This document shows, piece by piece, positions 9,637 through 62,973 of a DNA stretch of 64,000 nucleotides. Numbering within the stretch: position 1 is the stretch's first letter; each line of letters starts with the position of its first letter. The DNA comes from an uncultured archaeon (GTDB taxonomy: Archaea; Nanobdellota; Nanobdellia; Woesearchaeales; UBA583): NCBI GenBank assembly GCA_937138345.1, contig CAKZOW010000075.1, forward strand, positions 616 to 64,615, in the 5' to 3' direction. A program made the position numbers and the translations under genes. Below the pieces are notes generated by a model. It saw nothing but the letters and a program-made list of their open reading frames with translations. It was not told the origin of the DNA and did no database searches.

Positions 9637-10188
9637 TTAATTATATTGAATTGGATTCTCATCATAATACTTTTCAAGTTGCTCTTTTAAAGTATTATCT
9701 TTTGAAAAAGTCATTTCTCTAAACTCATAAGAAGGATAATTTTTTTGAGATTCTTCATGAAGTGATTTTGTTTGTTTAACTAAATCAAGAGAAAATGGAT
9801 TTTCTACTACAAAAAAATCAATATATGCATTAATGAATTCCTCCCTTACTTTTTCATCTGGAAACCTTGTAGTAATTGTGATTTTTAAAAGCTCTTTTAA
9901 TGTGTATAAAATCATCTCTTCAGGTAAAATAGAATACTCAACAGTAATTGGTTCTGAAAATGATTTAAATTGTTCAGCCCTTACAATAAAAATATCTAAA
10001 GTCTCAGGTAAAACATAACCTAAAGTTTCTTCTAAGAATGTTTTATGTGTTTCTAATTCTGGTAATAATGGTAAGAATCTATCTTTATCTGAGAGTAAAG
10101 ATGCAAAATTTTTAATTTGCTCCATTTCATTAAATGTAGGATTTAAAATTTGGTTATATTCATAAGAATATTTTGGATTAAGTTTCAT
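9637..10188 (-). CDS. hypothetical protein
   Basis: 183-aa ORF directly downstream of lgt. No recognisable motifs. Confidence 0.45.
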   Translation of the reverse strand: MKLNPKYSYEYNQILNPTFNEMEQIKNFASLLSDKDRFLPLLPELETHKTFLEETLGYVLPETLDIFIVRAEQFKSFSEPITVEYSILPEEMILYTLKELLKITITTRFPDEKVREEFINAYIDFFVVENPFSLDLVKQTKSLHEESQKNYPSYEFREMTFSKDNTLKEQLEKYYDENPIQYN

Positions 10189-10206
10189 AAAAAATAGTAG
10201 ACTTAC

Positions 10207-10773
10207 TCATTTATAAGATTTGAGTTTAATTTGAAGAGGTTTTTGAAACACTTCAACATTAGAATAATAAGCATAAACATTTTGAAGAGTTGATTGAAAA
10301 GACCACCCACAAACTTTTTCTTTTGGTAGCGAAATTAAATCTTCTGGAAATGTTTTAGTATCAAAAATAACTGAGTCTAAAACAATATTATTTTTTTTAA
10401 CTTTTTCAACAATAGTAACACCATCATCTAAAATATATAAAGTGTCATGTAAAAATTCTAAAATAATACCATCATAAATACCTAAGAGTTTTAATGAAAA
10501 ATGAATTTTAATCTCATCATTTTCCTTAATAAATAACGTAATAATTTCTGAAGATAGAGATCTTTTTGTTAACTCTTCTTGTAAAATATAAGTAAAATAA
10601 ATACATGGTGCCAAAAAAGGAATCTTTTTACTCTTAGAAAGATTTTCTAAAAAAGTATGGGAATAAGACGCCATAACTTCTTCTTTAGAATGGAGTGAAT
10701 AAAAAACATACTCGTTATTTAATTTAGAAATAAAATCTAAAAGAATTCTTTTTAACACATCTAAATGTTCCAT
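10207..10773 (-). CDS. hypothetical protein
   Basis: 188-aa ORF. No recognisable motifs. Confidence 0.45.
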   Translation of the reverse strand: MEHLDVLKRILLDFISKLNNEYVFYSLHSKEEVMASYSHTFLENLSKSKKIPFLAPCIYFTYILQEELTKRSLSSEIITLFIKENDEIKIHFSLKLLGIYDGIILEFLHDTLYILDDGVTIVEKVKKNNIVLDSVIFDTKTFPEDLISLPKEKVCGWSFQSTLQNVYAYYSNVEVFQKPLQIKLKSYK

Positions 10774-10819
10774 AACATAATTTCATACTATGAGTTTAAA
10801 TATATTTGTTACAATAAAC

Positions 10820-10842
10820 AAACGTCAAGACTGGGATTTGAA
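10820..10842 (-). repeat. displaced duplicate of the tRNA-Ser 3' end (T-loop position 54 to discriminator, plus 3 nt)
   Basis: 23-bp exact copy (aaacgtcaagactgggatttgaa) of 10965-10987. Identity breaks exactly at the T-stem/T-loop boundary. Confidence 0.9.
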
Positions 10843-10964
10843 ACTTTTTGAGCAAAGCTCACAAAGTGCAAGAACAAATCTTGGATTTGTGTTTAGCATC
10901 AGAATGTAATTCTGGATAGAGAAAATTCTAGTCTTAGGTTTTATTGAAGCGGAGCTGAAAATAA
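10843..10964 (-). repeat. 122-bp insert X-A between tRNA-Ser and its displaced 3' fragment (candidate miniature insertion element)
   Basis: Alignable over its length with 62796-62898. A perfect 15-mer acaaagtgcaagaac lies at 10861-10875 and 62814-62828. Confidence 0.6.
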
Positions 10965-10967
10965 AAA

Positions 10968-11050
10968 CGTCAAGACTGGGATTTGAACCCAGAATTCCAT
11001 AAGGAACAAGATTTCCAGTCTTGCGCAATACCGGATTATGCGATCTTGAC
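10968..11050 (-). tRNA. tRNA-Ser (anticodon GGA)
   Basis: Cloverleaf read by hand. Acceptor GTCAAGA/TCTTGAC, anticodon arm CAAGA-CTGGAAA-TCTTG, long variable arm TTCCTTATGGAATT, T arm CTGGG-TTCAAAT-CCCAG. No encoded CCA. T-run follows. Confidence 0.9.
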
Positions 11051-11054
11051 GTAA

Positions 11055-11104
11055 TGCAATGAAGTCAATATAGCGACCAAGAATTTGAGTATCAAATTGT
11101 TGAG
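11055..11104 (+). repeat. 50-bp insert Y-T between the tRNA-Ser 5' end and its displaced 5' fragment
   Basis: gcgaccaagaatttgagtatcaaattgttgagtatg matches the dphB spacer at 12510-12545 (28/36 ungapped), and the second spacer less closely. Confidence 0.6.
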
Positions 11105-11122
11105 TATGCGATCTTGACGTAA
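11105..11122 (-). repeat. displaced duplicate of the tRNA-Ser 5' end (4 nt upstream plus tRNA positions 1-14)
   Basis: 18-bp exact copy (tatgcgatcttgacgtaa) of 11037-11054. Confidence 0.9.
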
Positions 11123-11661: not shown

Positions 11662-12501
11662 ATGTTACACGTAATGGGAATTGGTTATAAAAAAGAACAT
11701 CTAAGTCTAGAAATGATAAATGTTCTAAAAGAAGCAGACGAAGTATTCTTAGAGTACTATACCTCATTTTATGGTTCATCATTTGAAGAACTAGAAGAAT
11801 TAGTTGGTAAAAAAATTACTATTTGTGATAGAGAGATCATTGAAAGTAAAGTTGAAGAAGTAATTTTAAAACCAGCAAAAGAAAAATCAATTGTGTTAAT
11901 GGTAATTGGTGATCCTCTTGTAGCAACAACTCACACAGATTTATTACTTAGAGCAGAAGATTTAGAAGTAGAAGCACAAGTATACCACAATGTATCAATT
12001 GCAAATTTCATTGCAAGAACAGGACTTCAATTCTACAAATTTGGAAAAATTACTTCTATTCCATTCTTCTCAGAAAAATTCATGCCAAGAACACCTTATA
12101 TGGTATACCTAGATAATCACAAAATGGGAGCTCATTCTCTATTTTTACTTGATTTAAACCCATCAAATGACATTGCAAACAAAGGTCACGATAAATATTT
12201 ATCTGCAGGAAAATCTTTACAATTCTTACTTGATGTTCCAAAATTAATGCTAGAAAATGAAGAAATCGAAGAAAAAGACACTCTTGCATTAGATGAAGAA
12301 GATAGAGCGATAATTTGTTCAAGACTAGGACACAAAGATGAAAAAATTGTCTATGGATCGATGAAAGATTTAATTGCATTTGATTCAGAACACATGCTAA
12401 AAGAACCACTTTGCCTAATCATCCCTGGAGACCTCCACGAAATGGAGGAGAACTACTTAAGTCAATTTCAAATTTCTAAGTTTAAATCATATCAAGAGTA
12501 G
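11662..12501 (+). CDS. dphB: diphthine synthase
   Basis: MLHVMGIGY..., VFLEYYTS, IGDPLVATTHTDLLLRA, VYHNVSI. Typical archaeal Dph5/DphB methyltransferase. Confidence 0.9.
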   Translation: MLHVMGIGYKKEHLSLEMINVLKEADEVFLEYYTSFYGSSFEELEELVGKKITICDREIIESKVEEVILKPAKEKSIVLMVIGDPLVATTHTDLLLRAEDLEVEAQVYHNVSIANFIARTGLQFYKFGKITSIPFFSEKFMPRTPYMVYLDNHKMGAHSLFLLDLNPSNDIANKGHDKYLSAGKSLQFLLDVPKLMLENEEIEEKDTLALDEEDRAIICSRLGHKDEKIVYGSMKDLIAFDSEHMLKEPLCLIIPGDLHEMEENYLSQFQISKFKSYQE

Positions 12502-12699
12502 TTCTCAACCGACCAATAATTTGTATAGAAAATTATTGAGTATGGAAGAAAATTATTTATCACAGTTTCAAATCAGTAAATTCAAAAGTTACCAAGAATA
12601 AATAATTTTTTGCCGATCAAGAATCTCTGATTGTTGAATATGGAGGAGAACTACTTAAGTCAATTCCAGATTTCAAAATTTAAGTCTTACGAAGAATAG
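12502..12699 (+). repeat. two extra tandem copies of the dphB 3'-terminal 60 bp (12542-12601, 12640-12699) with 40- and 38-bp spacers
   Basis: Each copy starts with ATG and ends with a stop. They encode MEENYLSQFQISKFKSYQE and ...SYEE. They differ from the genic copy almost only at synonymous positions. Confidence 0.95.
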
Positions 12700-16320: not shown

Positions 16321-16467
16321 GGCTAGCTACCCCAGAAGCATCGTCCACCCCGCGATTCCCAAGCACTTTTTAACAAGCTTAGTGCTGCTGAGTTCCCCCC
16401 CTGACACGATTCACTTGAAAAAAAGCCATGGAAGACAGAGCTTCTACCTTATCTTCTAGGACTAACC
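16321..16467 (-). ncRNA. signal recognition particle RNA, short form (S-domain only)
   Basis: Minus strand reads GUG-UCAGGGG-GGAA-CUCAGCAG-CAC, the helix-8 symmetric-loop/GNRA motif of SRP RNA. The 5' GGUUAGU pairs with the 3' GCUAGCC. A TATA-like TTTATAAATA lies about 22 nt upstream and UUUU follows. GC-rich island in AT-rich DNA. Confidence 0.6.
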
Positions 16468-19742: not shown

Positions 19743-19794
19743 AAAAATCAAAGTAAAAAATAATATAATTGTATTTTTTGAAGAAAAAATAATT

Positions 19795-19921
19795 AAAAAT
19801 TAGCAAAGCTAATTTTTGTAGCTTTTTTGACAAAGTCAAGGATGTTCAAAAACTAACATAGTTAGTTTTTGTAGCTTTATTTCTAAGAAATAAAGTTCAA
19901 AAATTAGCAAAGCTAATTTTT
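19795..19921. terminator. array of five A5-stem-loop-T5 hairpins between convergent genes (likely bidirectional terminators)
   Basis: AAAAATTAGC-AAA-GCTAATTTTT occurs at 19795 and 19899. AAAAACTAAC-ATA-GTTAGTTTTT at 19848 has compensatory changes. These are interleaved with TTGAC-AAA-GTCAA and TTTATTTCT/AGAAATAAA. The last hairpin contains the ppa stop codon. Confidence 0.6.
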
Positions 19922-20440
19922 GTATTCTTTATCATAGAGCTCAAATGACTTTTGAATACTCTCAATTGCTGTTGCTCTATCTTCCCAAGCCCCAACTTCA
20001 ACTTCTTTTTTCTGTAAATTCTTATAAACTTTGAAAAACTCTTGCATCTCCGCTAAAAGGTGAGGTGCAACATCAGTAATTTCTTTCATATGAGCAAATC
20101 TTGGATCTTTTACAGGAACTGCTAAAACTTTGGCATCTCCTTCACCACCATCAATCATATCTAAAACACCAAGTGCTCTACATTTTACAATACAACCAGG
20201 AACTAATGGTTCTTCAGATAGTACTAATACATCAAGAGGATCACCATCTTCCCAAAGTGTTTGTGGAACAAATCCATAATTTGCAGAGTAATGCATAGGA
20301 GAGTATAATACTCTATCAAACATAATTAAACCTGTATCTTTATCTACTTCATACTTTACTCTAGATCCTTTAGAGATTTCAATTACAGCTGTAAATTCTT
20401 CTGAAGATTTTCTATCAACATCGTGCCATAAATTAACCAT
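19913..20440 (-). CDS. ppa: inorganic pyrophosphatase (family I)
   Basis: EDGDPLDVLVL and DGGEGDAKVLAVP motifs over a 175-aa length. Confidence 0.9.
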   Translation of the reverse strand: MVNLWHDVDRKSSEEFTAVIEISKGSRVKYEVDKDTGLIMFDRVLYSPMHYSANYGFVPQTLWEDGDPLDVLVLSEEPLVPGCIVKCRALGVLDMIDGGEGDAKVLAVPVKDPRFAHMKEITDVAPHLLAEMQEFFKVYKNLQKKEVEVGAWEDRATAIESIQKSFELYDKEYKN

Positions 20441-30182: not shown

Positions 30183-31013
30183 ATGAGCAAAAAACTACAA
30201 TATATTTCTCTAGGTAACAATGTTTCTCTAGAATCAATACTTGAACTTCAAAGAAAAATATGTAGTTTTTATAGGCAATATCCTGGAGTTAACTGTATGT
30301 ATTCTTTCTCACCAAAACCAACAATTACTCTTGGAAGTTACCACAGGGACAACAAATTACATCCGAGTTTAAATTCTCCAGTAATGAAACAAGAAGCAGG
30401 TGAACAAAGAACTCAAGAGATTGCTACTTATTTAAGAGATAAGTTAGATAATGAAATTTCAGTGTTAAATAATTCTAATCAAAGGCCCGGTGGAAGTACA
30501 TATAATGGGCCTGGACAATTAAGCTTCTTTTTTAATCTTGACCTAACACAAGAAAGTATTCATTTTGATGAACTCAAAAAAGTACTTGATGAATCTATGA
30601 TTGAAACTCTAAAATCATATAGAAATGATCTAAATTTTAACTATAAAAAACAAATTGATATCTTTACTACAATCGAGGGAACTGATTATAAAATTGCATC
30701 TCAAGGATTCAAAGTTTCAACTAATGAGTCTAAAGTTGAACATACAAGATACGGAGTCACATTTCATCTTTCTCAGGATTCCATTAAACCCTTTGATTCT
30801 TGGATTTTACCTTGTGGAGTTGAACCACATGAAGGAAAAGCAATAGCTCTTGAACAACTTATTGAAGAACCTGTAAATCAAGAACTCTTTGAAAATAAAT
30901 TTCTAGAAATATTTTCATCAAAACTAGGCTTTGAAGTTGATTCAACAAATATCATTGGAGATGTTATAAAAAAAGAGTTTGAAGAGATAGAGAGAAAATT
31001 AAAACTTAAATAG
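30183..31013 (+). CDS. lipB: octanoyl/lipoyl transferase LipB-like
   Basis: RPGGSTYNGPGQL (compare RGGxxTYHGPGQ), DYKIASQGFKV (catalytic Lys region), ILPCGV (catalytic Cys region). Confidence 0.6.
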   Translation: MSKKLQYISLGNNVSLESILELQRKICSFYRQYPGVNCMYSFSPKPTITLGSYHRDNKLHPSLNSPVMKQEAGEQRTQEIATYLRDKLDNEISVLNNSNQRPGGSTYNGPGQLSFFFNLDLTQESIHFDELKKVLDESMIETLKSYRNDLNFNYKKQIDIFTTIEGTDYKIASQGFKVSTNESKVEHTRYGVTFHLSQDSIKPFDSWILPCGVEPHEGKAIALEQLIEEPVNQELFENKFLEIFSSKLGFEVDSTNIIGDVIKKEFEEIERKLKLK

Positions 31014-35110: not shown

Positions 35111-38100
35111 TCATTCTAATCCTACTAACACCTCTTTAAAGAATTCTCTTCTTGTTTGAGATGAAATATTTACTCTTAGTTCCCAAGAATTATCTAACGT
35201 TCGACTACCAGTATATGCACTAAATACTCCTTGATTTAGCATCAAAGAATAGAGCTCAAATTCATACAATGTTCCATTAGTTGAATATACATCAATTAGG
35301 TTTTCATTTTCTTGGAAAACGCTATATCTAAGTGAGCTTCCAACATCAAAACTACTTACAGAAACATAGTCTGGAACATAAAGATGCAATGTAATATTCT
35401 TATCAAGAGTAGTTTGATCAGATAATAAATTATTTACTCTAAAAATTGTATCATATACTCCTTCACCTAATTGAGTAGATTCTATTTCTAAAGATAAATT
35501 TGTATCAAAATTAATTTCATCAATTATCTCAACTGTTGTTAGTTGAGTTTGATCACCATTACTTAATTCTCCAAAAATATCATATGATGTATTAATATCA
35601 CCTGATGCATTAAGAAGATAACCAAGAACGATACTCTCACCAAATACTAAATTCAAATTCACTGGGTTTGGACCTTCAATGAACAACGGCAATTCTGCAC
35701 TCGTATTTGAAATTAATGAATATCTCCTCTCTTCAGATGAAAAAGAATAACTAGGATCTGATCCAAAATATTCTCTAATAAAAATATCATCTGTTAAATA
35801 CTCATTTCCACCATGAATTGTAAATCTACTAAATGATGAAAATGTATTATCATTTCCAGTCATAAAATTTAATTGAGTATAACTAGAATCAAAAATTTCA
35901 AATTCTATATCTTGGTTGAAATAAGAAAATCTTTGTGTATACCACGCATTCTGAGATGTTGCAAAATTAGTTCCTGTTGCAACAGTTGATGCTACGTCCC
36001 CTGTTCTCTCTTCAATTTGAAATTGTGTACTTGCCCCAAAATTATTCAGATAAGGACCATACCCATTCCCAGAATTGTCACTTAGTGCATACCGATTAGC
36101 ACCTCCACCATTAGTATTAATTCTATTTGTTTTCAGATACATTTCATAATTTACAAAGTTAAATCCTACATCTACAAATCCTCCATTAGGATCATCATTT
36201 GTATCTTTAAGCAAGGCTCTATTCCCACTAGTCTCTGTAGCTAATCGCACTACTCCCGAATCCAAGTCACTCCACCCAACTGGGAGACTTCCGTCTAATT
36301 GACTGACAAAATTTTCAAAGTCCTCAAAATACAAAAACGTCTCAGCACCGTCACTTCTACTGATAGCCTCATCATTACCATAATAAAATTCAAAATTATA
36401 TTGTTGAGAAACTACTAAAGGAATATGTGATTCAATAAAAATTCTAGCTACTTGAGATCCGAAATCACAGTAATCAACATAATAATCAAGTTCTAATCCT
36501 GATGATGAAAATAAAAAATCATTACATTGGTTATTCCAATTAAAATTAGACCCAACATTTGAATTATTTAACTCAAGTAGATATACAAAATTCTCAGTTG
36601 TTGTGGCAGGTGCTGTAAAGGAGATATTTTGCCTATATGCATAACTCCTATTAAACCAAGGTTTATCTAAATCATCAAAATATAAACTTGAAGTAATATT
36701 TGAGCAACCTAAAACATCTTGACAAGATACATTTACGCTAACTAAAAGAGTCGTATTTTGAATAACTTGAGTAGTAGATAATGGTAGAGGATTTACTAAA
36801 TCAATATCTAATGATTTAACTACAATTGAACATTGAAGTGTAAGAGTATCTGTAGTTGAAGTATCATCTGAACTAACTTCAAAAACTGCACTAACAGTAC
36901 CCACATTAGAATCTAAGCATGAAAAGAATACTTCCGAGCTTTGATTTTCTACAAGAGAAGATCCTTGAGTAAAACTTGTTGAAAAAGAAGAACAATTTCC
37001 TGAAATACAAGTAATAAAAATATTTGAATTTGCATATCTTGAAAATAAATTTGTAGAGTTGATTTCATTACCTTCACTTTGAAAAACTTCATCAAAAGTA
37101 ATTAATGAATCCTCAAAAGTTAACTGGTTTTCTCCTAAAATTCTCAATTCAAGTCTTTGAGTATCTACTAAATTACCTAACTCCCCAAACATAACATGTC
37201 TACTATCAACAGGACCTGTTGCATTAAGAAGATATGTTACAAGAGATGATGTTCCTGAACTTACATTGATGAACTGAGGATTACTATCTAAGTAAAAAGG
37301 AGTTGAGCCAAGAATTGGAGAAACTAATTCTTTAGAACCAATAGTCATCAAACCTTCTTCTAAAGTAAACCATGCAACATCTTCATTTGCGTGAGTATCA
37401 CAATCACCAGCACCATCTTGCTCACAATACCTCACCTCAGCACTAGTGCCGGACACGAGTCTAGCGCTTGGGTATTGAGGGTCCTGTGCTCCATTATCTG
37501 AGTTTTGATACACAGCAATAACTGGATCTACAAATGTCTCAGAAAAACTAACAGGAGTCCATTCAGAATTTCCAATACTCTCTTCTCCATTTGAAAACCT
37601 AGAAAAATCTGCATTTGAAAAATCAATTGCAACATATCCATAAGTCTCACTAAAAGTACCCGAACACGTATCGCCAGTCCCCGCATGATCACATGCAATA
37701 AGTGTAGCACCACTTGTTGTAATTGTTCCATCAACCCAACCACTAGGTGCAATCTGACCTGTTGCACTGGAATAGTCTTGAGCTTGTGCAAATACACTCG
37801 GAACATTAGAAAATGTTTTTGAAAAACTAAATGCGGTATCTGATCCATCAGTTGGAACATTAGAGAGAGTTCCAACATCAATCCAACTCAATCCTGAAAT
37901 AACATCAGAATCAAAAACCATGTAATGAACTTCTTCTTGTTCAACAACTGATGAACAAGTACTAGCACCAGCATCTTCACAAAGTGCAATAGTAAATCCC
38001 GTAGTATCTAGTGAAGTGATAACTGGAATTAAAGCATTATTGTCTGAATCTGTATCACTTACAGGAGTTGCAATTACAACAGGATTTGATGAATATTCTC

Positions 38101-41100
38101 TCTCAAAAGTAATTCTCTGTGATTCAAAATTCTCTAAAGTTACACTACCCGTCTCACCAATAGATTGCAAATCATAATACAAACTAACATTAACATCTAT
38201 ACAATCAACTACATCTGCACAAGTAACATTTAATGTAATTGGGAAGGTAGTATTTTGTTCAACATCAAAAAGAACATCTGGATCTGGATTTTGCATAGTA
38301 ACATAAAGTGGTAGCTCAGTTGCTTCACAATCTAAAGCAATAGTATCTCCACTTGAATCCTGATTAGAAAATACTTGAAATACAGCGCTAAAGTTTCCTG
38401 CAACAGATGCTGAACAGATAAATTCAATTTCTGAAGTGTTTAAAGAGTCAATAGTAGAACCTTGAGCAAACGGAGTTGAAAATAAAGAACAATCTCCACT
38501 CAAACAACTAACCTGAACATTAGTATGATCTACTACACTTGCATCAAGTTGAGTAGATAAACTAACAGGATTATAATTTACAACAACCCCATTAAAATTT
38601 AAAGTATCATCTACAAAAGAAATTCTTGGCCTATCAACAATACTAACATTTACTAAATTTGAAATAACTTCTGGAAGAGATGACTTTGTTCTAACTTCTA
38701 ATTCATGGAATGAACCCAAAGGACCTGTACTATTAACTTGAAAAGAAACTACACAAGAACCATCAATTGGCACTAAACAAGAATCAGTAGTAGAACCCAG
38801 GATTCTAAATGGAGATAACGAACTATTTGTAACTTGGATGCTATTTGCATACAAACTAACATCCACATCCCCACAAGAGCCATTACATGATAAATTTACA
38901 TCAAGGTTAAAACTTTGATTTTGAAGAACTTCAGTATTTGAAATTGGAGAAATAATTGTAGCATTTAATGAACTCTCACGAATAATAACACTCACATTAT
39001 TTGAAATTGGACCATAATTTGTTAAGCCAAATAATGTAAACAATGAATTCTCTGGAGCATTTGATGAAAGACTAAATGTTCTTGACTCTGAACTCCCCGC
39101 AGATACACTAAATGCTTGAGGATTCTGAGCAGTCCATAATGGATAAGTATTATTTATAGTAGAGATACTATCTTGACTTGAACTCATAGTTTGAATTAAA
39201 CCTTCCTCTAAAGCAAACCAAGCAACATCTTCATTTGCGTGAGTATCACAATCACCAGCTCCATCTTGTTCACAATACCTCACCTCTGCACTAGTGCCGG
39301 ACACGAGTCTAGCGCTTGGGTATTGTGGATCTTGACCCCCATTATCTGAGTTTTGATACACAGCAATAACAGGATCTACAAATGTCTCAGAAAAACTAAC
39401 TGGAGTCCATTCAGAATTTCCAATACTCTCCTCTCCATTTGAAAACTTAGAAAAATCTGCATTTGTAAAATCAATTGCAACATATCCATAAGTCTCACTA
39501 AAAGTCCCAGAACACGTATCGCCAGTCCCCGCATGATCACATGCAATAAGTGTAGCACCACTTGTTGTAATTGTTCCATCAACCCAACCACTAGGTGCAA
39601 TCTGACCTGTTGCACTGGAATAGTCTTGAGCTTGTGCAAATACACTCGGAACATTAGAAAATGTTTTTGAAAAACTAAATGCGGTATCTGATCCATCAGT
39701 TGGAACATTAGAGAGAGTTCCAACATCAATCCAACTCAATCCTGAAATAACATCAGAATCAAAAACCATGTAATGAACTTCTTCTTGTTCAACAACTGAT
39801 GAACAAGTACTAGCACCAGCATCCTCACATAATGAAAATTCAACATGTGTTGTATTAAGGTTATGAATAACTGGAATTAAAGCATTATTGTCGGAATCTG
39901 TATCACTTGCAGGAGTTGCAATTACAACAGGTGTTGAATTATATGTTTTCATAAATTCAATCAATACCCTTTGATTATTCTGAGTTGTAAATGAACCTGT
40001 CTCACCAATTGATTCTACTCCATCATAAATCAAATCTATAGTAACACCTGAACAATCAAGTGCACCTACACAACTAACATTAAATACAACATCAAGTCCT
40101 TCATTTAAATAAAAATCACTTGGATTAGCAATAGGAGATACAACATCAATAGTAATTGTTGAAGGTGGAGAAATTACAAAAGTATCTTCTAAATTAATTG
40201 TTGGTAATGTAGCATGAGAACAACTCACATTATAAAAAAAACTTCCTGCACTTGGAAAAGTTGAATAAAAATCATATTGCCCAATTGATGTATTATAGTT
40301 CATTGGAGAAAAAGAGCCATAACTTCCATTTGTATTAAATTGAATTTGACAATTTGCATCATCAACTTGTGATGTATTAACAAAACTATAATTTGCAAAA
40401 AAACCAATCTCAGTATTTATACCAACTGGAAAAAAATCACTATAATCATAAATTGATAAGGAACTATTTTCTACAACAGTATAATTTGAAAAATGAGGTA
40501 CACCTACTTCTAAAATTCCTCCAGAATAAGTTAAAATACTACATTGAGTACAAATACTATTTCCGTTAACCAATACAATCGGTTCAACTTCATCGATATT
40601 GTAAAATCTCAAAATAGCAGACACATTGTAGTTGGTAAGAACCTGAGAATCTAAGCTCATAAATGAATCAGAAATTGTAACATAAGTATCTAGATCTGCA
40701 TTGTCTGCATCAATACATTGTGTAAATTCAATACTCCCAAAAGAAGTATTTTCAAGAATTAAGTTACAAACATTTGAGATATTTGACACTAATGATAAAT
40801 CTGTTGTAGTACCATCAAAAGTTTCATAAGAAACATTCAATGGACTAATTAAAGTAATCTGTCTTGATAGTAATTCTACCTGAGATGAAGTTCTATCTTC
40901 TGCTCTTAGCGTAAAATTATAATTCCCAGGAGTTATTGAAATAGTTGTGGTGACATCGCTACAATCTGAACATAAAGAAACAAATGAACCACCATTTAAT
41001 GAATATGAGAAATCAGAACTTTTCGTTGCAAAAGCATCAACTAAAATTGAATTTCCAATAGATGTCAAATTCTCAAGCGGAGATATTAATGATACAACAT

Positions 41101-44100
41101 AAGGAATTACTACAGGTTCTAATACTTCAAAACTAACATCATCATTATCATAATACTGGCCCACATTTGCACAAAAATCATTTTCTCCATCCCAATCAAC
41201 AATACATCTTACATAATGAGTACCTGTTACATCATCCACAGTAAATGTTTGAGAAACAGAGTTAGGGTTTCCATCTACAGCATTACCACTGAAGAGCTGA
41301 GTCCAGTCTGTTGAATTGTAGTAATACATATATATCTCAGTTCCAGCGTCATAAGGATCATAAAAACAAGTAGCTTCAACACTAGTTCCCCAAAACATAG
41401 TTGACATATTAATTTCTACCTCTTGTACATTTTCATCACCAGCATTACCCAAACTACTTGAGCACGAATCAAAGGTATTATCTCCCTCGCTTGTTGCAGG
41501 CCACAAAGAACAATCAAAGCCAAAAGTATCACTACATGTCCTACCAGAAGTATTTATAAGAGTTAATGGATCTACATAAAAAACACTGAAATTTATTGTT
41601 TCATTGATAATTTCTGAAGTTAAAATGTCCTGAGCAAATAGTGTTAATGAATAATTACCATTTCTAAATACTTCATCAATTAGGAATGTATCACAAGATG
41701 AACATATCTCAACGCCTGGTCCACCATTAATTGAATAAGAAATATCTGCATTTTTTGAAGTAAGTCCTGAAATACTAATAACTGGATTAGTATATTCTAT
41801 ATTCAAAGGAGAAAGAAGAGATAATGTAAATGGGATTTCAACTAATTCTAAAACCTCAATACTTGCATCATCATTATCATAATAAGAACCACCATCTCCG
41901 CATTGATCATTCTCACCATCCCAGTCAACAATACACCTGTAATAATGAGTACCAACAACTGAGTCAACCTGATGAACAACACTCACATTATGAACATTAG
42001 CATCTGGAGCATTACCACTGTAGAGCTGAGTCCAATCTGTTGTGTTATAATAATAGATATACTCCTCAGTTCCTGCACCATAAGGATCAAATTGACATGT
42101 TACCTCAACACTATCTCCACCATACACTAATGTTGAATTAATAAAAACCTCGTCAACATGCTCGTCTCCAGCACCTCCTATCGCGCTTGGGCATGAGTCA
42201 AAGGTATTATCCCCCTCACTTGTTGCAGGCCACAAAGAACAATCAAAGCCAAAAGTATCACTACAAGTTCTCTGTGTACTATCAGCTGGAGGATTAATTA
42301 TATCACTAGTTACACTAAATGATTCTATCCATATATTTTCTTCCAATGTACTATCTGCTACTGCTCTAACTTCAATATCATAAGAACCAATAGTCAAAAA
42401 TATTATTTCATCAAAACTAATACAATTAGAACAAATTTCAATAAAAGAACCGCCATTAATTGAATAAGAAATAGTAGAGCTAACATCTGTAGTTCCAGCT
42501 ACAGTGATCAATGGTGATGAATATGCTAAGTTTTGAGGTGAAGTGATATTTAAAAACGGATTTAGTACTTCAAAACTAACATCATCATTATCATAATATT
42601 GTCCTGTCTCAGCACAAAAATCATTCTCACCATCCCAATCAATAATACATCTTACGTAATGAGTACCTGAAACTAAAGAAACGGGAATTGTCGCACTCAC
42701 TTGATGAACATTACCATCAGGAGCATTCCCAGCATATAATTGAATCCAATCTGTTGTATTGTAGTAATAAATATACTCTTCAGTTCCTGCACTATATGGA
42801 TCAAACGTACAAGTAGCTTCAACAGATTCTCCAAAATAAACCAAGGAAGAATTTACAATAACACTATCAACATGCTCATCATTAGCACCCCCAGTACTTG
42901 AAGGACATGAGTCAAAAGTATTATCTCCTTCGCTTGTTGCAGGCCAATCTGAGCAATCAAAGCCAAAAGTATCGGTACATGATCTCTGAGTTCCCTGTAC
43001 TAGTGGATCAATTGCAAAAAGCCATGATCTATTTTCAAGAAAGTAATCCTGTGTTCCATAAGAAATTTGAGCTCTTCCTAATTCATATAAATATGGAGTT
43101 AGCAGAGGAGTTTGAGAATAATAAAAGAAATTTTCATGTGTAGAAATATTATCCCAAATAAGATATTTTCTTGATTTATCTTCTGATTGTTCTACCCTAT
43201 CTGCATTAGTATCTGTAATCTCAAATGTTGAAGGAATACTTTCCCTTAATTCAGTTATTTGGTTTAACTCATAATTGGTTAAAGTAAATTCATTTCTAAA
43301 AGGCCCTAAAAAAGGATCAATTGTCGCTGGCACATTTCTTATAATATCAAAAGGAATAGTATCAACAACATTCACATAACTTTTTCTATTTAATTCATAA
43401 TCTCCTACCTGTGTCGTAACATCAATGAGATATTTTCCAGTCTCAGTTACATTATAATATGCAAAATATACACCATTTTTTTTACTCTCAACAATTCCTC
43501 TATCTTGTGTTGTTATTTGTATGAAATCCCCTCCTGGAGTTTCTAACTGAAGTGATATATTTGAAGAAGAAACTAAATAACCATTAGGATCTAAAACTAC
43601 AATTACAAATTTTACAATAGATTGTACTTCATAAAGAGGCTTTTGAGTATTAATTGAAACCAACCCATATGCAAAAAATTCATCATCTCCCATTATCGTT
43701 TCTTTCTTATAAATACCTGGAGTTAAATTTTGTAAACTTGAATTTACAAAAACCTCCTTAGTATTTAAGTTAATATAAGTATTTTCTTGAGATTGATTTT
43801 CTAAATCTTGAGATTCTAAAGAAGGTAGAAAAACTTTTTCCTGAGATCTAGCATTTGTCTCCTCGTCTAAAAATATTACTGTTGAATTCTCCAAAAGAAT
43901 AATCTCTTCATCTTTTTCAATAAGAACTTTTTCTTCAGTACCATCTAAATTAATTTTTGTAATTTCTCTTTGAGTATCAATACTCTGTTCTCTAAAAGAA
44001 GAATTAAATAAAGAAGTAGTATTTACACTTCTTGGTTTTTTAATTGGTTTCTCAACTTCCTCTTTTTTCTCAATAATACTCTCAAGTTCAGAATCATCTT

Positions 44101-44806
44101 GCTCGATAGAACCTGTATTTTCTCCCTCATCATCAAAATATCCTAATTCGAAACTATAAAGGCTCTCACCAAAATCACTATAAACATTAACCTGATATTC
44201 TCCTAAAATTAATGGCTGAGATACATTAAAAGAAAAACTACATTGATATATACAGTTGAGTGAAAATGATGTTTTTTGATCTGGAACAGATTTTGGAAAA
44301 ATATCAAAAAAAAATTCTCCTTCTTGAGTTGAAGTAAGAAATCCATTGACTTTAGTTGTAATAGAATCCCTAGTTACTTCTACCCTTTTTGGAAGGGACA
44401 CACTATAAATTTCATTTTTTATCTCCTCTAAAACAAAAGAACTTCTTTGTGTAAATTTATTTCTCTCATATCTTGTAGAAACAATAATTTCATGAACTCC
44501 AAATGTGGTTCTTCCAATTCTTAATTTTTCAAAACAACTATAACCTGAACAAGAAAATTTTCTTGATGAAATTACAATATTTTCAGAGTTAATAATTTCT
44601 ACATCAAATGTAATCTCAGTATCAATTTCTTTACTAATTCCTAAATCTAAAAAGTAACTTGAATCTTCAAAAACTACTTCAACATTAGATATTGAAAATA
44701 AACCATCAGATACTCGCTGCGTTGCTGAAAACAATGAAAATAGTAATAGTAATACAACAAATATACTAATACCTATTCTCTTTGAAATCTTCATAGAAGA
44801 TTTCAA
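35111..44806 (-). CDS. giant secreted surface protein (3231 aa) with multiple repeat classes and a DUF2341 + LamG-like region
   Basis: Uninterrupted 9.7-kb ORF with an N-terminal signal peptide. Contains three Cys-rich ~240-aa units, two ~275-aa near-identical units and recurring ~45-aa Ig/CARDB-like modules. The segment KPWFNRSYAYRQNISF...FYYGNDEA (about 36330-36670) fits DUF2341 and is followed by a ConA/LamG-like segment. Confidence 0.85.
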   Translation of the reverse strand: MKSSMKISKRIGISIFVVLLLLFSLFSATQRVSDGLFSISNVEVVFEDSSYFLDLGISKEIDTEITFDVEIINSENIVISSRKFSCSGYSCFEKLRIGRTTFGVHEIIVSTRYERNKFTQRSSFVLEEIKNEIYSVSLPKRVEVTRDSITTKVNGFLTSTQEGEFFFDIFPKSVPDQKTSFSLNCIYQCSFSFNVSQPLILGEYQVNVYSDFGESLYSFELGYFDDEGENTGSIEQDDSELESIIEKKEEVEKPIKKPRSVNTTSLFNSSFREQSIDTQREITKINLDGTEEKVLIEKDEEIILLENSTVIFLDEETNARSQEKVFLPSLESQDLENQSQENTYINLNTKEVFVNSSLQNLTPGIYKKETIMGDDEFFAYGLVSINTQKPLYEVQSIVKFVIVVLDPNGYLVSSSNISLQLETPGGDFIQITTQDRGIVESKKNGVYFAYYNVTETGKYLIDVTTQVGDYELNRKSYVNVVDTIPFDIIRNVPATIDPFLGPFRNEFTLTNYELNQITELRESIPSTFEITDTNADRVEQSEDKSRKYLIWDNISTHENFFYYSQTPLLTPYLYELGRAQISYGTQDYFLENRSWLFAIDPLVQGTQRSCTDTFGFDCSDWPATSEGDNTFDSCPSSTGGANDEHVDSVIVNSSLVYFGESVEATCTFDPYSAGTEEYIYYYNTTDWIQLYAGNAPDGNVHQVSATIPVSLVSGTHYVRCIIDWDGENDFCAETGQYYDNDDVSFEVLNPFLNITSPQNLAYSSPLITVAGTTDVSSTISYSINGGSFIEICSNCISFDEIIFLTIGSYDIEVRAVADSTLEENIWIESFSVTSDIINPPADSTQRTCSDTFGFDCSLWPATSEGDNTFDSCPSAIGGAGDEHVDEVFINSTLVYGGDSVEVTCQFDPYGAGTEEYIYYYNTTDWTQLYSGNAPDANVHNVSVVHQVDSVVGTHYYRCIVDWDGENDQCGDGGSYYDNDDASIEVLELVEIPFTLSLLSPLNIEYTNPVISISGLTSKNADISYSINGGPGVEICSSCDTFLIDEVFRNGNYSLTLFAQDILTSEIINETINFSVFYVDPLTLINTSGRTCSDTFGFDCSLWPATSEGDNTFDSCSSSLGNAGDENVQEVEINMSTMFWGTSVEATCFYDPYDAGTEIYMYYYNSTDWTQLFSGNAVDGNPNSVSQTFTVDDVTGTHYVRCIVDWDGENDFCANVGQYYDNDDVSFEVLEPVVIPYVVSLISPLENLTSIGNSILVDAFATKSSDFSYSLNGGSFVSLCSDCSDVTTTISITPGNYNFTLRAEDRTSSQVELLSRQITLISPLNVSYETFDGTTTDLSLVSNISNVCNLILENTSFGSIEFTQCIDADNADLDTYVTISDSFMSLDSQVLTNYNVSAILRFYNIDEVEPIVLVNGNSICTQCSILTYSGGILEVGVPHFSNYTVVENSSLSIYDYSDFFPVGINTEIGFFANYSFVNTSQVDDANCQIQFNTNGSYGSFSPMNYNTSIGQYDFYSTFPSAGSFFYNVSCSHATLPTINLEDTFVISPPSTITIDVVSPIANPSDFYLNEGLDVVFNVSCVGALDCSGVTIDLIYDGVESIGETGSFTTQNNQRVLIEFMKTYNSTPVVIATPASDTDSDNNALIPVIHNLNTTHVEFSLCEDAGASTCSSVVEQEEVHYMVFDSDVISGLSWIDVGTLSNVPTDGSDTAFSFSKTFSNVPSVFAQAQDYSSATGQIAPSGWVDGTITTSGATLIACDHAGTGDTCSGTFSETYGYVAIDFTNADFSKFSNGEESIGNSEWTPVSFSETFVDPVIAVYQNSDNGGQDPQYPSARLVSGTSAEVRYCEQDGAGDCDTHANEDVAWFALEEGLIQTMSSSQDSISTINNTYPLWTAQNPQAFSVSAGSSESRTFSLSSNAPENSLFTLFGLTNYGPISNNVSVIIRESSLNATIISPISNTEVLQNQSFNLDVNLSCNGSCGDVDVSLYANSIQVTNSSLSPFRILGSTTDSCLVPIDGSCVVSFQVNSTGPLGSFHELEVRTKSSLPEVISNLVNVSIVDRPRISFVDDTLNFNGVVVNYNPVSLSTQLDASVVDHTNVQVSCLSGDCSLFSTPFAQGSTIDSLNTSEIEFICSASVAGNFSAVFQVFSNQDSSGDTIALDCEATELPLYVTMQNPDPDVLFDVEQNTTFPITLNVTCADVVDCIDVNVSLYYDLQSIGETGSVTLENFESQRITFEREYSSNPVVIATPVSDTDSDNNALIPVITSLDTTGFTIALCEDAGASTCSSVVEQEEVHYMVFDSDVISGLSWIDVGTLSNVPTDGSDTAFSFSKTFSNVPSVFAQAQDYSSATGQIAPSGWVDGTITTSGATLIACDHAGTGDTCSGTFSETYGYVAIDFSNADFSRFSNGEESIGNSEWTPVSFSETFVDPVIAVYQNSDNGAQDPQYPSARLVSGTSAEVRYCEQDGAGDCDTHANEDVAWFTLEEGLMTIGSKELVSPILGSTPFYLDSNPQFINVSSGTSSLVTYLLNATGPVDSRHVMFGELGNLVDTQRLELRILGENQLTFEDSLITFDEVFQSEGNEINSTNLFSRYANSNIFITCISGNCSSFSTSFTQGSSLVENQSSEVFFSCLDSNVGTVSAVFEVSSDDTSTTDTLTLQCSIVVKSLDIDLVNPLPLSTTQVIQNTTLLVSVNVSCQDVLGCSNITSSLYFDDLDKPWFNRSYAYRQNISFTAPATTTENFVYLLELNNSNVGSNFNWNNQCNDFLFSSSGLELDYYVDYCDFGSQVARIFIESHIPLVVSQQYNFEFYYGNDEAISRSDGAETFLYFEDFENFVSQLDGSLPVGWSDLDSGVVRLATETSGNRALLKDTNDDPNGGFVDVGFNFVNYEMYLKTNRINTNGGGANRYALSDNSGNGYGPYLNNFGASTQFQIEERTGDVASTVATGTNFATSQNAWYTQRFSYFNQDIEFEIFDSSYTQLNFMTGNDNTFSSFSRFTIHGGNEYLTDDIFIREYFGSDPSYSFSSEERRYSLISNTSAELPLFIEGPNPVNLNLVFGESIVLGYLLNASGDINTSYDIFGELSNGDQTQLTTVEIIDEINFDTNLSLEIESTQLGEGVYDTIFRVNNLLSDQTTLDKNITLHLYVPDYVSVSSFDVGSSLRYSVFQENENLIDVYSTNGTLYEFELYSLMLNQGVFSAYTGSRTLDNSWELRVNISSQTRREFFKEVLVGLE
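37345..38170 (-). repeat. intragenic repeat copy R2 (~825 bp)
   Basis: Matches 39193-40018 at a fixed 1848-bp offset. 37663-37975 is identical to 39511-39823 (313 bp). Confidence 0.9.
39193..40018 (-). repeat. intragenic repeat copy R1 (~825 bp)
   Basis: See R2. The protein segments SIGETGS...VAWF(A/T)LEEGL are nearly identical. Confidence 0.9.
40850..42995 (-). repeat. three tandem ~720-bp units encoding a Cys-rich module plus an Ig-like domain
   Basis: Units start near 42995, 42277 and 41548. Conserved block C(T/S)DTFGFDCSxWPATSEGDNTFDSC ... GTHYVRCI(I/V)DWDGENDFC ... YYDNDDVSFEVL. Confidence 0.85.
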
Positions 44807-62775: not shown

Positions 62776-62795
62776 CCCTCCGACCGGGATTTGAA
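62776..62795 (-). repeat. displaced duplicate of the tRNA-Glu 3' end (T-loop position 54 to discriminator)
   Basis: 20-bp exact copy (ccctccgaccgggatttgaa) of 62899-62918. Identity breaks at the same T-loop position as at tRNA-Ser. Confidence 0.9.
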
Positions 62796-62898
62796 ACTTT
62801 GAGAGTGAAACGAACAAAGTGCAAGAACGAGCTTGGCGAGTGTCTGGCATAATGTTGAAAATTACACATAGAAAAATATCGTTGCTAAGCTATAAATA
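62796..62898 (-). repeat. 103-bp insert X-B between tRNA-Glu and its displaced 3' fragment (homologue of X-A)
   Basis: Begins actttgagag... (X-A begins actttttgag...). Shares acaaagtgcaagaac, gtgt.t.gcat..aatgt and atagaRaaaat blocks with 10843-10964. Confidence 0.6.
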
Positions 62899-62973
62899 CC
62901 CTCCGACCGGGATTTGAACCCGGGTCACAGCCGTGAGAGGGCTGCATGATTGGCCGGACTACACTATCGGAGG
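62899..62973 (-). tRNA. tRNA-Glu (anticodon CUC)
   Basis: CCTCCGA-TA-GTGTAGTCCGGCCAATCAT-G-CAGCC-CTCTCAC-GGCTG-TGAC-CCGGG-TTCAAAT-CCCGG-TCGGAGG-G. The D-arm is typical of archaeal tRNA-Glu. First pair reads C1-G72. TATA-like TTTTATTATAG upstream. No encoded CCA. Confidence 0.85.

Follow-up and report, generated by a model that had tools for sequence, protein, structure and literature searches.

Cis-mobilizable elements (CIMEs), as described for tandem accretion in the ICESt1 family (PMC5704250), are bordered by attL and attR attachment sites that derive from the 3' end of their target gene, and they have no integrase of their own. They form tandems with other elements inserted at the same site, and can be carried along when an integrase-bearing element integrates beside them (PMC5704250). 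A comparable picture comes from Prochlorococcus, a streamlined marine microbe in which tRNA genes seed the variable islands of tycheposons (10.1101/2020.12.28.424599). There, each new integration displaces the older elements outward, with nothing but partial tRNA copies between them, and both degenerate remnants and heterogeneity between strains are seen (10.1101/2020.12.28.424599). Archaeal elements with SSV-type or pNOB8-type integrases also use a tRNA gene as their attachment site, and a partial tRNA forms their distal border (PMC7253208, PMC3293823).

Here, we describe a locus that resembles these systems at a much smaller scale. It lies in a 64,000-nucleotide (nt) stretch of DNA from an uncultured archaeon (contig CAKZOW010000075.1; hereafter the window), and consists of a complete tRNA-Glu(CUC) gene, a 103-nt non-coding insert that we call Glu103, and an exact second copy of the last 20 nt of the tRNA. 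We propose, with a probability of about 0.55, that Glu103 and one 20-nt tRNA-end copy together make up a mini-cassette that lacks an integrase and was placed by site-specific recombination of the integrase type. The host is a marine, Nanoarchaeota/Woesearchaeota-like member of the DPANN archaea, which have tiny genomes and whose mobile elements are poorly known; this placement rests on homologues of a TrmB-like regulator encoded in the window, which are annotated in metagenome-assembled genomes (MAGs) of Nanoarchaeota and Woesearchaeota.

Duplicated 3' ends at two tRNA genes

The tRNA genes were called with ARAGORN and Rfam. The tRNA-Glu gene occupies positions 62899-62973 on the minus strand and matches Rfam RF00005 over its full length (55.5 bits, model positions 1-71). 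Its last 20 nt (62899-62918, minus strand) form the proximal, attL-like repeat copy. Glu103 follows at 62796-62898, and an exact distal, attR-like copy of the tRNA end stands at 62776-62795, both again on the minus strand. The repeated 20-mer, TTCAAATCCCGGTCGGAGGG, corresponds to tRNA-Glu positions 54-73, that is, the T-loop, the 3' strand of the T-stem, the 3' strand of the acceptor stem, and the discriminator base. It is present exactly twice in the window, where the expected number is 0.00 even if three mismatches are allowed. Read along the minus strand, the tRNA ends in ...CCCGGG-TTCAAAT-CCCGG-TCGGAGG-G, which is followed by 103 nt and then by TTCAAATCCCGGTCGGAGGG exactly. The tRNA calls and the exact repeat search thus bear out an earlier, sequence-only reading, which had described an intact tRNA-Glu, a 103-bp insert, and an exact 20-bp copy of positions 54-73. 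Beyond the distal copy lies the flank CTTATTACATT; in alleles without the insert, the same flank stands directly 3' of the tRNA. The partial tRNA copies are att remnants and not tRNA genes, which is a practical point for annotation.

The same arrangement is found at a complete tRNA-Ser(GGA) gene (10968-11050, minus strand; ARAGORN and Rfam). Here, the proximal repeat copy is a 23-mer (10965-10987), the insert, insA, is 122 nt long (10843-10964), and the distal copy comprises tRNA-Ser positions 54-73 plus TTT (10820-10842), all on the minus strand. In both tRNAs, the identity between gene and copy begins at T54, where TTCAAAT is preceded by GGG in the gene and by AGT in the copy. The claim that identity breaks at the same nucleotide in the two tRNAs is therefore correct. 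At both loci, the gene has G53 immediately 5' of the repeat where the copy has T, and CAAA(AA)GT precedes the copy. The tRNA-proximal end of the insert starts with TATTTATAGC (also TATTTATAG) at tRNA-Glu and with TTTTTATTTTCAGC at tRNA-Ser, and the far end of Glu103 reads CTCAAAGT.

We find that the relationship between Glu103 and insA (together, type A inserts) is real at the sequence level. Their global alignment score is 49, compared with 9.7 ± 4.0 (maximum 27) for shuffle controls (z = 9.9) and 11.0 ± 4.8 (maximum 33) for 3000 genomic control windows of the same length (z = 7.8). The two inserts thus exceed every control in an alignment test that had been set beforehand. The similarity is uneven: the left halves are ~55-60% identical, the right-hand block is well conserved, including its end CTCAAA(AA)GT, and ~20 nt at the tRNA-proximal end of insA have no counterpart in Glu103. 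Relatedness of the two inserts therefore stands, but not the further statement that they align evenly along their whole length. Glu103 and insA are nonetheless collinear over both halves, with no trace of differing deletion junctions.

Both inserts contain the 15-mer GTTCTTGCACTTTGT, which had been reported as a perfect match and is exact at 62814-62828 (minus strand) and at 10861-10875. By itself this 15-mer is weak evidence of relatedness, since at least two matches with up to two mismatches occur in 5 of 100 shuffles; it is a candidate protein-binding site. A weak hairpin, ACTTTG..CAAAGT (62796-62820, minus strand), abuts the distal repeat of the tRNA-Glu locus, and its counterpart at tRNA-Ser has a 10/11-bp stem.

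This layout suggests how the insert might have arrived. The incoming DNA would have carried its own copy of tRNA positions 54-73 as an att core. A crossover in or next to the T-loop (TTCAAAT) would leave the tRNA intact at the proximal junction, and the same crossover would push the original 3' end to the distal junction. A free circle, or attP junction, would then read CTCAAAGT-TTCAAATCCCGGTCGGAGGG-TATTTATAG (or the core followed by TATTTATAGC).

Variation between strains at tRNA-Glu, tRNA-Ser, and other gene ends

An exact-protein look-up of the neighboring TrmB-like gene yielded ten marine metagenome contigs and one NCBI MAG for comparison with the tRNA-Glu locus. The insert is polymorphic among them. 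Five sequences have an empty site, with a single core followed by CTTATTACATT (L002, L003, L005, L007, and L008), and three carry a 103-nt insert identical to that of the window (L001, L009, and L010; four sequences counting the window). A further one (L006; GCA_041253975.1) has a 161-nt insert between the same two tRNA-Glu cores. The difference between filled and empty sites is exactly the insert plus one repeat, 123 bp, and the strains with an empty site carry an identical tRNA-Glu. Flank identity to the window is 99.9% in the filled window group, 98.7% in L006, and 96-97% in two empty outgroup clades. Since the filled alleles form one clade and the outgroup clades are empty, the insertion is a derived, monophyletic state. 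A 95%-identical lineage reached via TrmB-like homologues (L023-L026) also has a single core and no type A sequence; in more distant relatives, tRNA-Glu does not stand beside the TrmB-like gene, so that synteny is not conserved.

The L006 insert is 87% identical to Glu103 over the aligned part, while the L006 flanks are 98.7% identical. Its right-hand module is tandemly duplicated (an internal duplication of ~58 nt), and the 15-mer GTTCTTGCACTTTGT is present in both right-hand modules. This insert has either evolved ~10 times faster than its flanks or been replaced. An nhmmer profile built from the three type A inserts recovered only the known copies in the window and in the loci fetched by then. 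The family that had been recognized from two inserts has thereby gained a third allele at tRNA-Glu, and no other site in these sequences. The inspected part of the genome, ~90 kb (the window and its flanks), has four tRNA calls, Ser, Glu, Ala, and a doubtful "SeC", and no type A copy was found at a third tRNA within it. The doubtful call (30805-30899, minus strand) is a 95-nt ARAGORN tRNA-SeC(TCA) inside a plus-strand lipoate ligase-like open reading frame (ORF), with nothing in Rfam at the gathering score, and is probably false.

Variation at tRNA-Ser goes beyond presence and absence. Contigs for this comparison were reached via the neighboring 188-aa ORF and ribosomal protein L1. The window and two contigs (L011 and L015) have the order tRNA-insA-core-flank, and two others (L013 and L014) have tRNA-insA-core-ins2-core-flank, with a second insert, ins2, of 94 nt. 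Contig L057 reads tRNA-insC-core-ins2-core-flank, where insC is 93 nt long and the third core carries a single-nucleotide polymorphism (SNP). In contig L032, an integrase gene is followed after 21 nt by a copy of tRNA-Ser that extends from its anticodon stem to its 3' end, and then by ins2-core-insA-core-flank. The ins2 unit is thus distal to insA in L013 and L014 but proximal in L032, and simple deletion cannot yield both orders. The swap takes either reinsertion or recombination between cores of different arrays.

No relation is detectable between insC and type A (best z of 2.4 in the same orientation, and 2.8 against the reverse complement of the tRNA-Ser insert). Because unrelated inserts (93-nt insC and 94-nt ins2) occupy the same sites, the common factor is a site-specific recombination process and not one element family. 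The sequence-only reading had argued for a small family that is mobile or generated by recombination, as opposed to chance. This view is strengthened by the presence/absence polymorphism, by the 161-nt L006 allele as a third member, and by the changes of order at tRNA-Ser.

The homology between contig L058 and the window ends immediately past TTCAAATC of the distal tRNA-Ser core, which is consistent with a crossover at the T-loop. Separately, positions 1-1363 of this contig, compared with window positions 10188-10842, have an unrelated 396-aa ORF in exchange for the 188-aa ORF, of which the last ~25 nt remain; on the right side, the break is close to a TTCAAAT that forms part of the 188-aa ORF's 3' end.

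Duplicated gene ends are also present elsewhere in the window. At the 5' end of tRNA-Ser, two copies of TTACGTCAAGATCGCATA (11037-11054 and 11105-11122, minus strand) surround a 50-nt hairpin insert, ins5 (11055-11104, minus strand). This 68-bp unit is absent from L057, and is therefore polymorphic. The last 60 nt of the diphthine synthase gene are present in three copies on the plus strand (12442-12501, 12542-12601, and 12640-12699), ~100 bp apart, with spacers of 40 and 38 nt that contain hairpins related to ins5 and ins2. Although the nucleotide identity of the three copies is only 68-85%, their differences are almost all synonymous: each copy specifies MEENYLSQFQISKFKSY(Q/E)E and a stop codon, and the 19 encoded residues vary by a single Q-to-E change. 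Such divergence implies that each copy evolved within a working gene somewhere, which fits imported cores and not duplication of the target. As an observation in its own right, these 3' copies could be att-type copies left by one integration after another, or else small ORFs in tandem.

The inserts ins2 and ins5 (the latter in reverse orientation) and the two diphthine synthase spacers all contain a palindromic module, CAAsAAT...ATTsTTG(AG), that borders directly on the next repeat copy. Their similarity scores are z = 6.1 and 9.6, the motif is counted five times against 1.3 expected, and the hairpins are confirmed by folding. Across loci, the repeats are 18, 19, 20, 23, 44, and 60 nt long. 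The inserts cover a narrow size range (93, 94, 103, and 122 nt; those of the hairpin type, 38-50 nt), and no remnants of intermediate size are seen. Three tandem hairpins (AAAAATTAGCAAAGCTAATTTTTG) with short repeated lead-ins at 19776-19939, just past the end of a minus-strand gene, are arranged much like the hairpin spacers at the other duplicated gene ends.

We suggest that the sites used in this population would comprise the 3' ends of tRNA-Glu and tRNA-Ser, the 5' end of tRNA-Ser, and probably the 3' end of the diphthine synthase gene. These sites would collect arrays of repeat, small insert, and repeat, in which cassettes are gained, lost, replaced, and reordered between strains. The cores are not all identical (a SNP in L057, 91% identity at a further tRNA-Ser gene described below, and 68-85% at diphthine synthase), which is expected of imported att cores and not of duplications generated from the target.

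The window has a G+C content of ~29%, and encodes diphthine synthase, Spt4/Rpb7-type neighbors, and the TrmB-like regulator. Two other features are recorded here. The signal recognition particle RNA (16344-16441, minus strand) matches the bacterial small model (48.8 bits) and not the archaeal one, in an otherwise archaeal-looking (DPANN) genome. An ORF of 3231 aa (35111-44806, minus strand) has only weak matches to DUF2341, H-type lectin, and filamin, and probably encodes a surface protein.

Integrases and the origin of the inserts

No integrase was found in 21 of 22 mid-window ORFs of at least 130 aa scanned against Pfam, nor among the precomputed Pfam hits at both ends of the window. The window thus encodes no integrase, and the cassettes are non-autonomous. 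The integrase gene that heads the tRNA-Ser array in L032 encodes a 278-aa archaeal tyrosine integrase of the Pfam family PF16795, "Archaeal phage integrase" (E = 2.7e-30). It has 41 homologues, with 33-48% identity among 20 that were aligned and 35-48% by BLAST over the list. Several of them are annotated from Nanoarchaeota or Woesearchaeota MAGs, again beside partial tRNAs. In L040, the border between host and element holds a partial tRNA (anticodon region to 3' end), with an integrase gene of this kind in divergent orientation to it. On a Nanoarchaeota-like contig from JGI (L035, positions 9723-10792), a PF16795 integrase gene lies just downstream of tRNA-Ser(GCT), and a 44-nt copy of the 5' half of this tRNA, 91% identical, lies 25 nt upstream of the intact gene. 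The cassettes would most likely ride in cis or in trans on integrase-bearing elements, of which the PF16795 element in the tRNA-Ser of L032 is an example.

The integrase elements have other features of note. In the L032 element (positions 1-1704), iteron-like repeats (ACTATGTACTT, repeated, and AAAAGTACATCGTT, present twice) lie upstream of the integrase gene, as does a GC-rich stretch of ~170 nt bounded by a perfect 24-nt inverted repeat (TTTGGGCGGTTAATCCGTTCGACA); no part of this element has a match in Rfam. Genes of the bAvd/23S_rRNA_IVP type, a marker of diversity-generating retroelements, are present on integrase elements in L039 (3730-4080) and L040 (10537-10893).

Several observations weigh against our proposal. 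A free circle of 123 bp would be very small, and mobilization in cis by a larger element is something we infer. At tRNA-Glu alone, a single old insertion with loss by recombination between the repeats explains the polymorphism equally well. The tRNA-Ala gene and the "SeC" call, two of the four tRNA calls in ~90 kb, have no such repeats. The core of the L032 integrase element is 46 nt long and starts in the anticodon stem, in contrast to the 19-23-nt T-loop core, and nothing links this integrase to the small cassettes. Inserts without detectable similarity to type A, insC and ins2, occupy the same site. Finally, searches of the collections turned up neither a full-length parent with these arms, nor an attP or excised junction, nor a matching integrase. 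The sequence-only reading had recommended looking for an integrase or a larger parent element: we find a PF16795 element in the tRNA-Ser of L032, but neither a parent with the same arms nor an integrase with a T-loop core.

The reach of these searches was limited. Collection-wide DNA searches of IMG/VR, GTDB genomes, and JGI metagenomes missed this lineage entirely, and the family pattern GTTCTTGCACTTTGTN{8,24}AAGTTTC had no match in any of the three. An insert end joined to the Glu or Ser core was not found in IMG/VR, with patterns that did not include the left arm and were thus not specific for attP. Repeat, insert, and repeat together had no match by blastn in phage and plasmid collections. 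The Glu core has seven single matches in GTDB genomes, one of which is a different Nanoarchaeota tRNA-Glu(UUC) without the duplication. Relatives of the L032 integrase were absent from IMG/VR, and only six JGI loci were found.

The alternative that fares best, although we think it rather unlikely, is that each insert is all that survives of a larger virus or plasmid that had integrated there, lost its interior by deletion so that its two arms became fused, and is now immobile. The polymorphism would then reflect one old insertion, loss by recombination between repeats, and exchange of alleles between strains. Integrase-bearing elements do enter tRNA-Ser in this population, the filled tRNA-Glu alleles are monophyletic, and decay to att-flanked remnants is an accepted route to CIMEs (PMC5704250) and to the partial-tRNA remnants of tycheposons (10.1101/2020.12.28.424599). 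The unrelated inserts at one site and the missing parent, attP junction, and integrase, all listed above, are points in its favor. However, the collinearity of the Glu and Ser inserts would require that reduction to the mini form came before the split onto two tRNAs. Furthermore, the insert sizes fall in a narrow range without intermediates, and the repeats start at the T-loop, whereas relics of the sole integrase element seen would have a 46-nt repeat. The swapped order of ins2 and insA is also more than simple deletion can produce.

A bolder version of our own proposal, which we regard as doubtful, holds that the cassettes are natively tiny (~60-145 bp with the core) and active. They would be inserted, excised, and shuffled in integron-like arrays at TTCAAAT cores by an archaeal tyrosine recombinase that recognizes the hairpin or a conserved GTTCTTGCAC-type arm beside the core, and that also acts on tRNA 5' ends and on the 3' end of a protein gene. 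This would place them among the smallest known site-specific mobile units, and make them the first mobilome feature of this type described in DPANN archaea.

Duplication of the target is improbable. Here, a casposase or another enzyme that makes staggered cuts would have inserted a short non-autonomous element in the T-arm, and gap repair would have duplicated positions 54-73. The same coordinates in two tRNAs, together with homologous inserts, are what a transposase specific for target structure would give, with no need for tRNA sequence in the element. Moreover, casposons and solo terminal inverted repeats at tRNA-Leu of Methanosarcina use the tRNA 3' end, form tandem arrays that share one duplicated target, and are gained and lost between strains (PMC4779613). 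Casposons, however, encode Cas1, end in terminal inverted repeats, and duplicate a target site of fixed length (14 nt in M. mazei) (PMC4779613). The inserts have no terminal inverted repeats (first 25 nt against the reverse complement of the last 25 nt; z of -1.3 to 1.1 in five inserts), and neither the window nor the related loci contain a gene for Cas1 or a transposase. The repeats range from 18 to 60 nt, and their copies differ by a SNP or by many synonymous changes, unlike a fresh duplication.

An even less probable origin is an error of repair or replication, in which template switching or slippage at highly transcribed, structured gene ends leaves filler DNA without any recombinase. The short duplications with hairpin filler at the tRNA-Ser 5' end and at the diphthine synthase 3' end, and the tandem hairpins at 19776-19939, would suit such errors. 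Yet the fillers at the two tRNAs, which lie 52 kb from each other, share a homology seen nowhere else in the window, cassette order differs between strains, and the synonymous-only differences at diphthine synthase point to sources under selection in another genome.

Least probable of all is a small functional RNA, or a terminator and promoter module, selected at tRNA trailers with the tRNA-end copy as part of the RNA: T-runs at the insert start (TATTTAT; TTTTTATTTTC) might terminate tRNA transcription and the tRNA-Ser insert folds better than shuffles (z = -3.3), but for Glu103 folding is not better than in shuffles (z = +0.45), the two inserts do not have their hairpins in common, the insert has no match in Rfam and is dispensable in five related strains, and the one open frame on the reverse strand of Glu103 has no protein-level conservation in the tRNA-Ser insert, as judged by reading the sequences.

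Other candidates were considered and rejected. An interrupted or split tRNA (with a bulge-helix-bulge intron) does not apply, since the proximal copy already completes the tRNA (Rfam 1-71, 55.5 bits) and strains with an empty site have the same tRNA. The lack of protein-level conservation between the Glu and Ser inserts likewise speaks against leftover coding sequence of an integrase. A decayed tandem copy of the tRNA is contradicted by the last 53 nt of the insert, which are unlike tRNA positions 1-53, and a tRNA-primed retroelement by the copy itself, which lacks CCA and has the same sense as the tRNA. In an integron cassette array, an IntI-type integrase with attI and an attC hairpin at the end of each cassette would be expected, but the integrase family here is PF16795 and the repeats are gene-derived cores; hairpins do abut the distal core in several inserts, but that of Glu103 is weak.

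Significance and comparison with known systems

If cassettes of this kind are placed by site-specific recombination, as we propose, tRNA genes in this marine Nanoarchaeota-like population would be active recombination hot spots, with strain microdiversity in units of ~70-150 bp. Cassettes that are still mobile would mark a lower size limit for integrase-driven elements, and would offer a tractable system with a short core, a conserved 15-mer, a hairpin, and a candidate integrase family. As scars, they would still serve as markers of past integrations and could help to find the viruses and plasmids of uncultured DPANN hosts.

The likeness to archaeal elements with SSV-type or pNOB8-type integrases extends to a PF16795 integrase beside a partial tRNA, as seen in L032 and L040. 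Those elements, however, are kilobases long, compared with 103 nt here, and the cores in L032 and L040 run from the anticodon region to the 3' end, whereas the core here starts at the T-loop. Tycheposons carry integrases and cargo; the units described here have neither, are ~100 bp long, and occur in a DPANN host in which the integrase family is PF16795 (archaeal, SSV-like). The CIMEs described so far are kilobase-scale decayed integrative and conjugative or integrative and mobilizable elements of Firmicutes (PMC5704250), whereas the units here are 40-160 bp, non-coding, and archaeal. Unlike CIMEs, two of these units represent one sequence family on two different tRNAs, and their mobilization is putative. 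Thus, the cassettes are an unusually small archaeal form of the known att-flanked, integrase-less elements that accumulate in tRNA-gene arrays.

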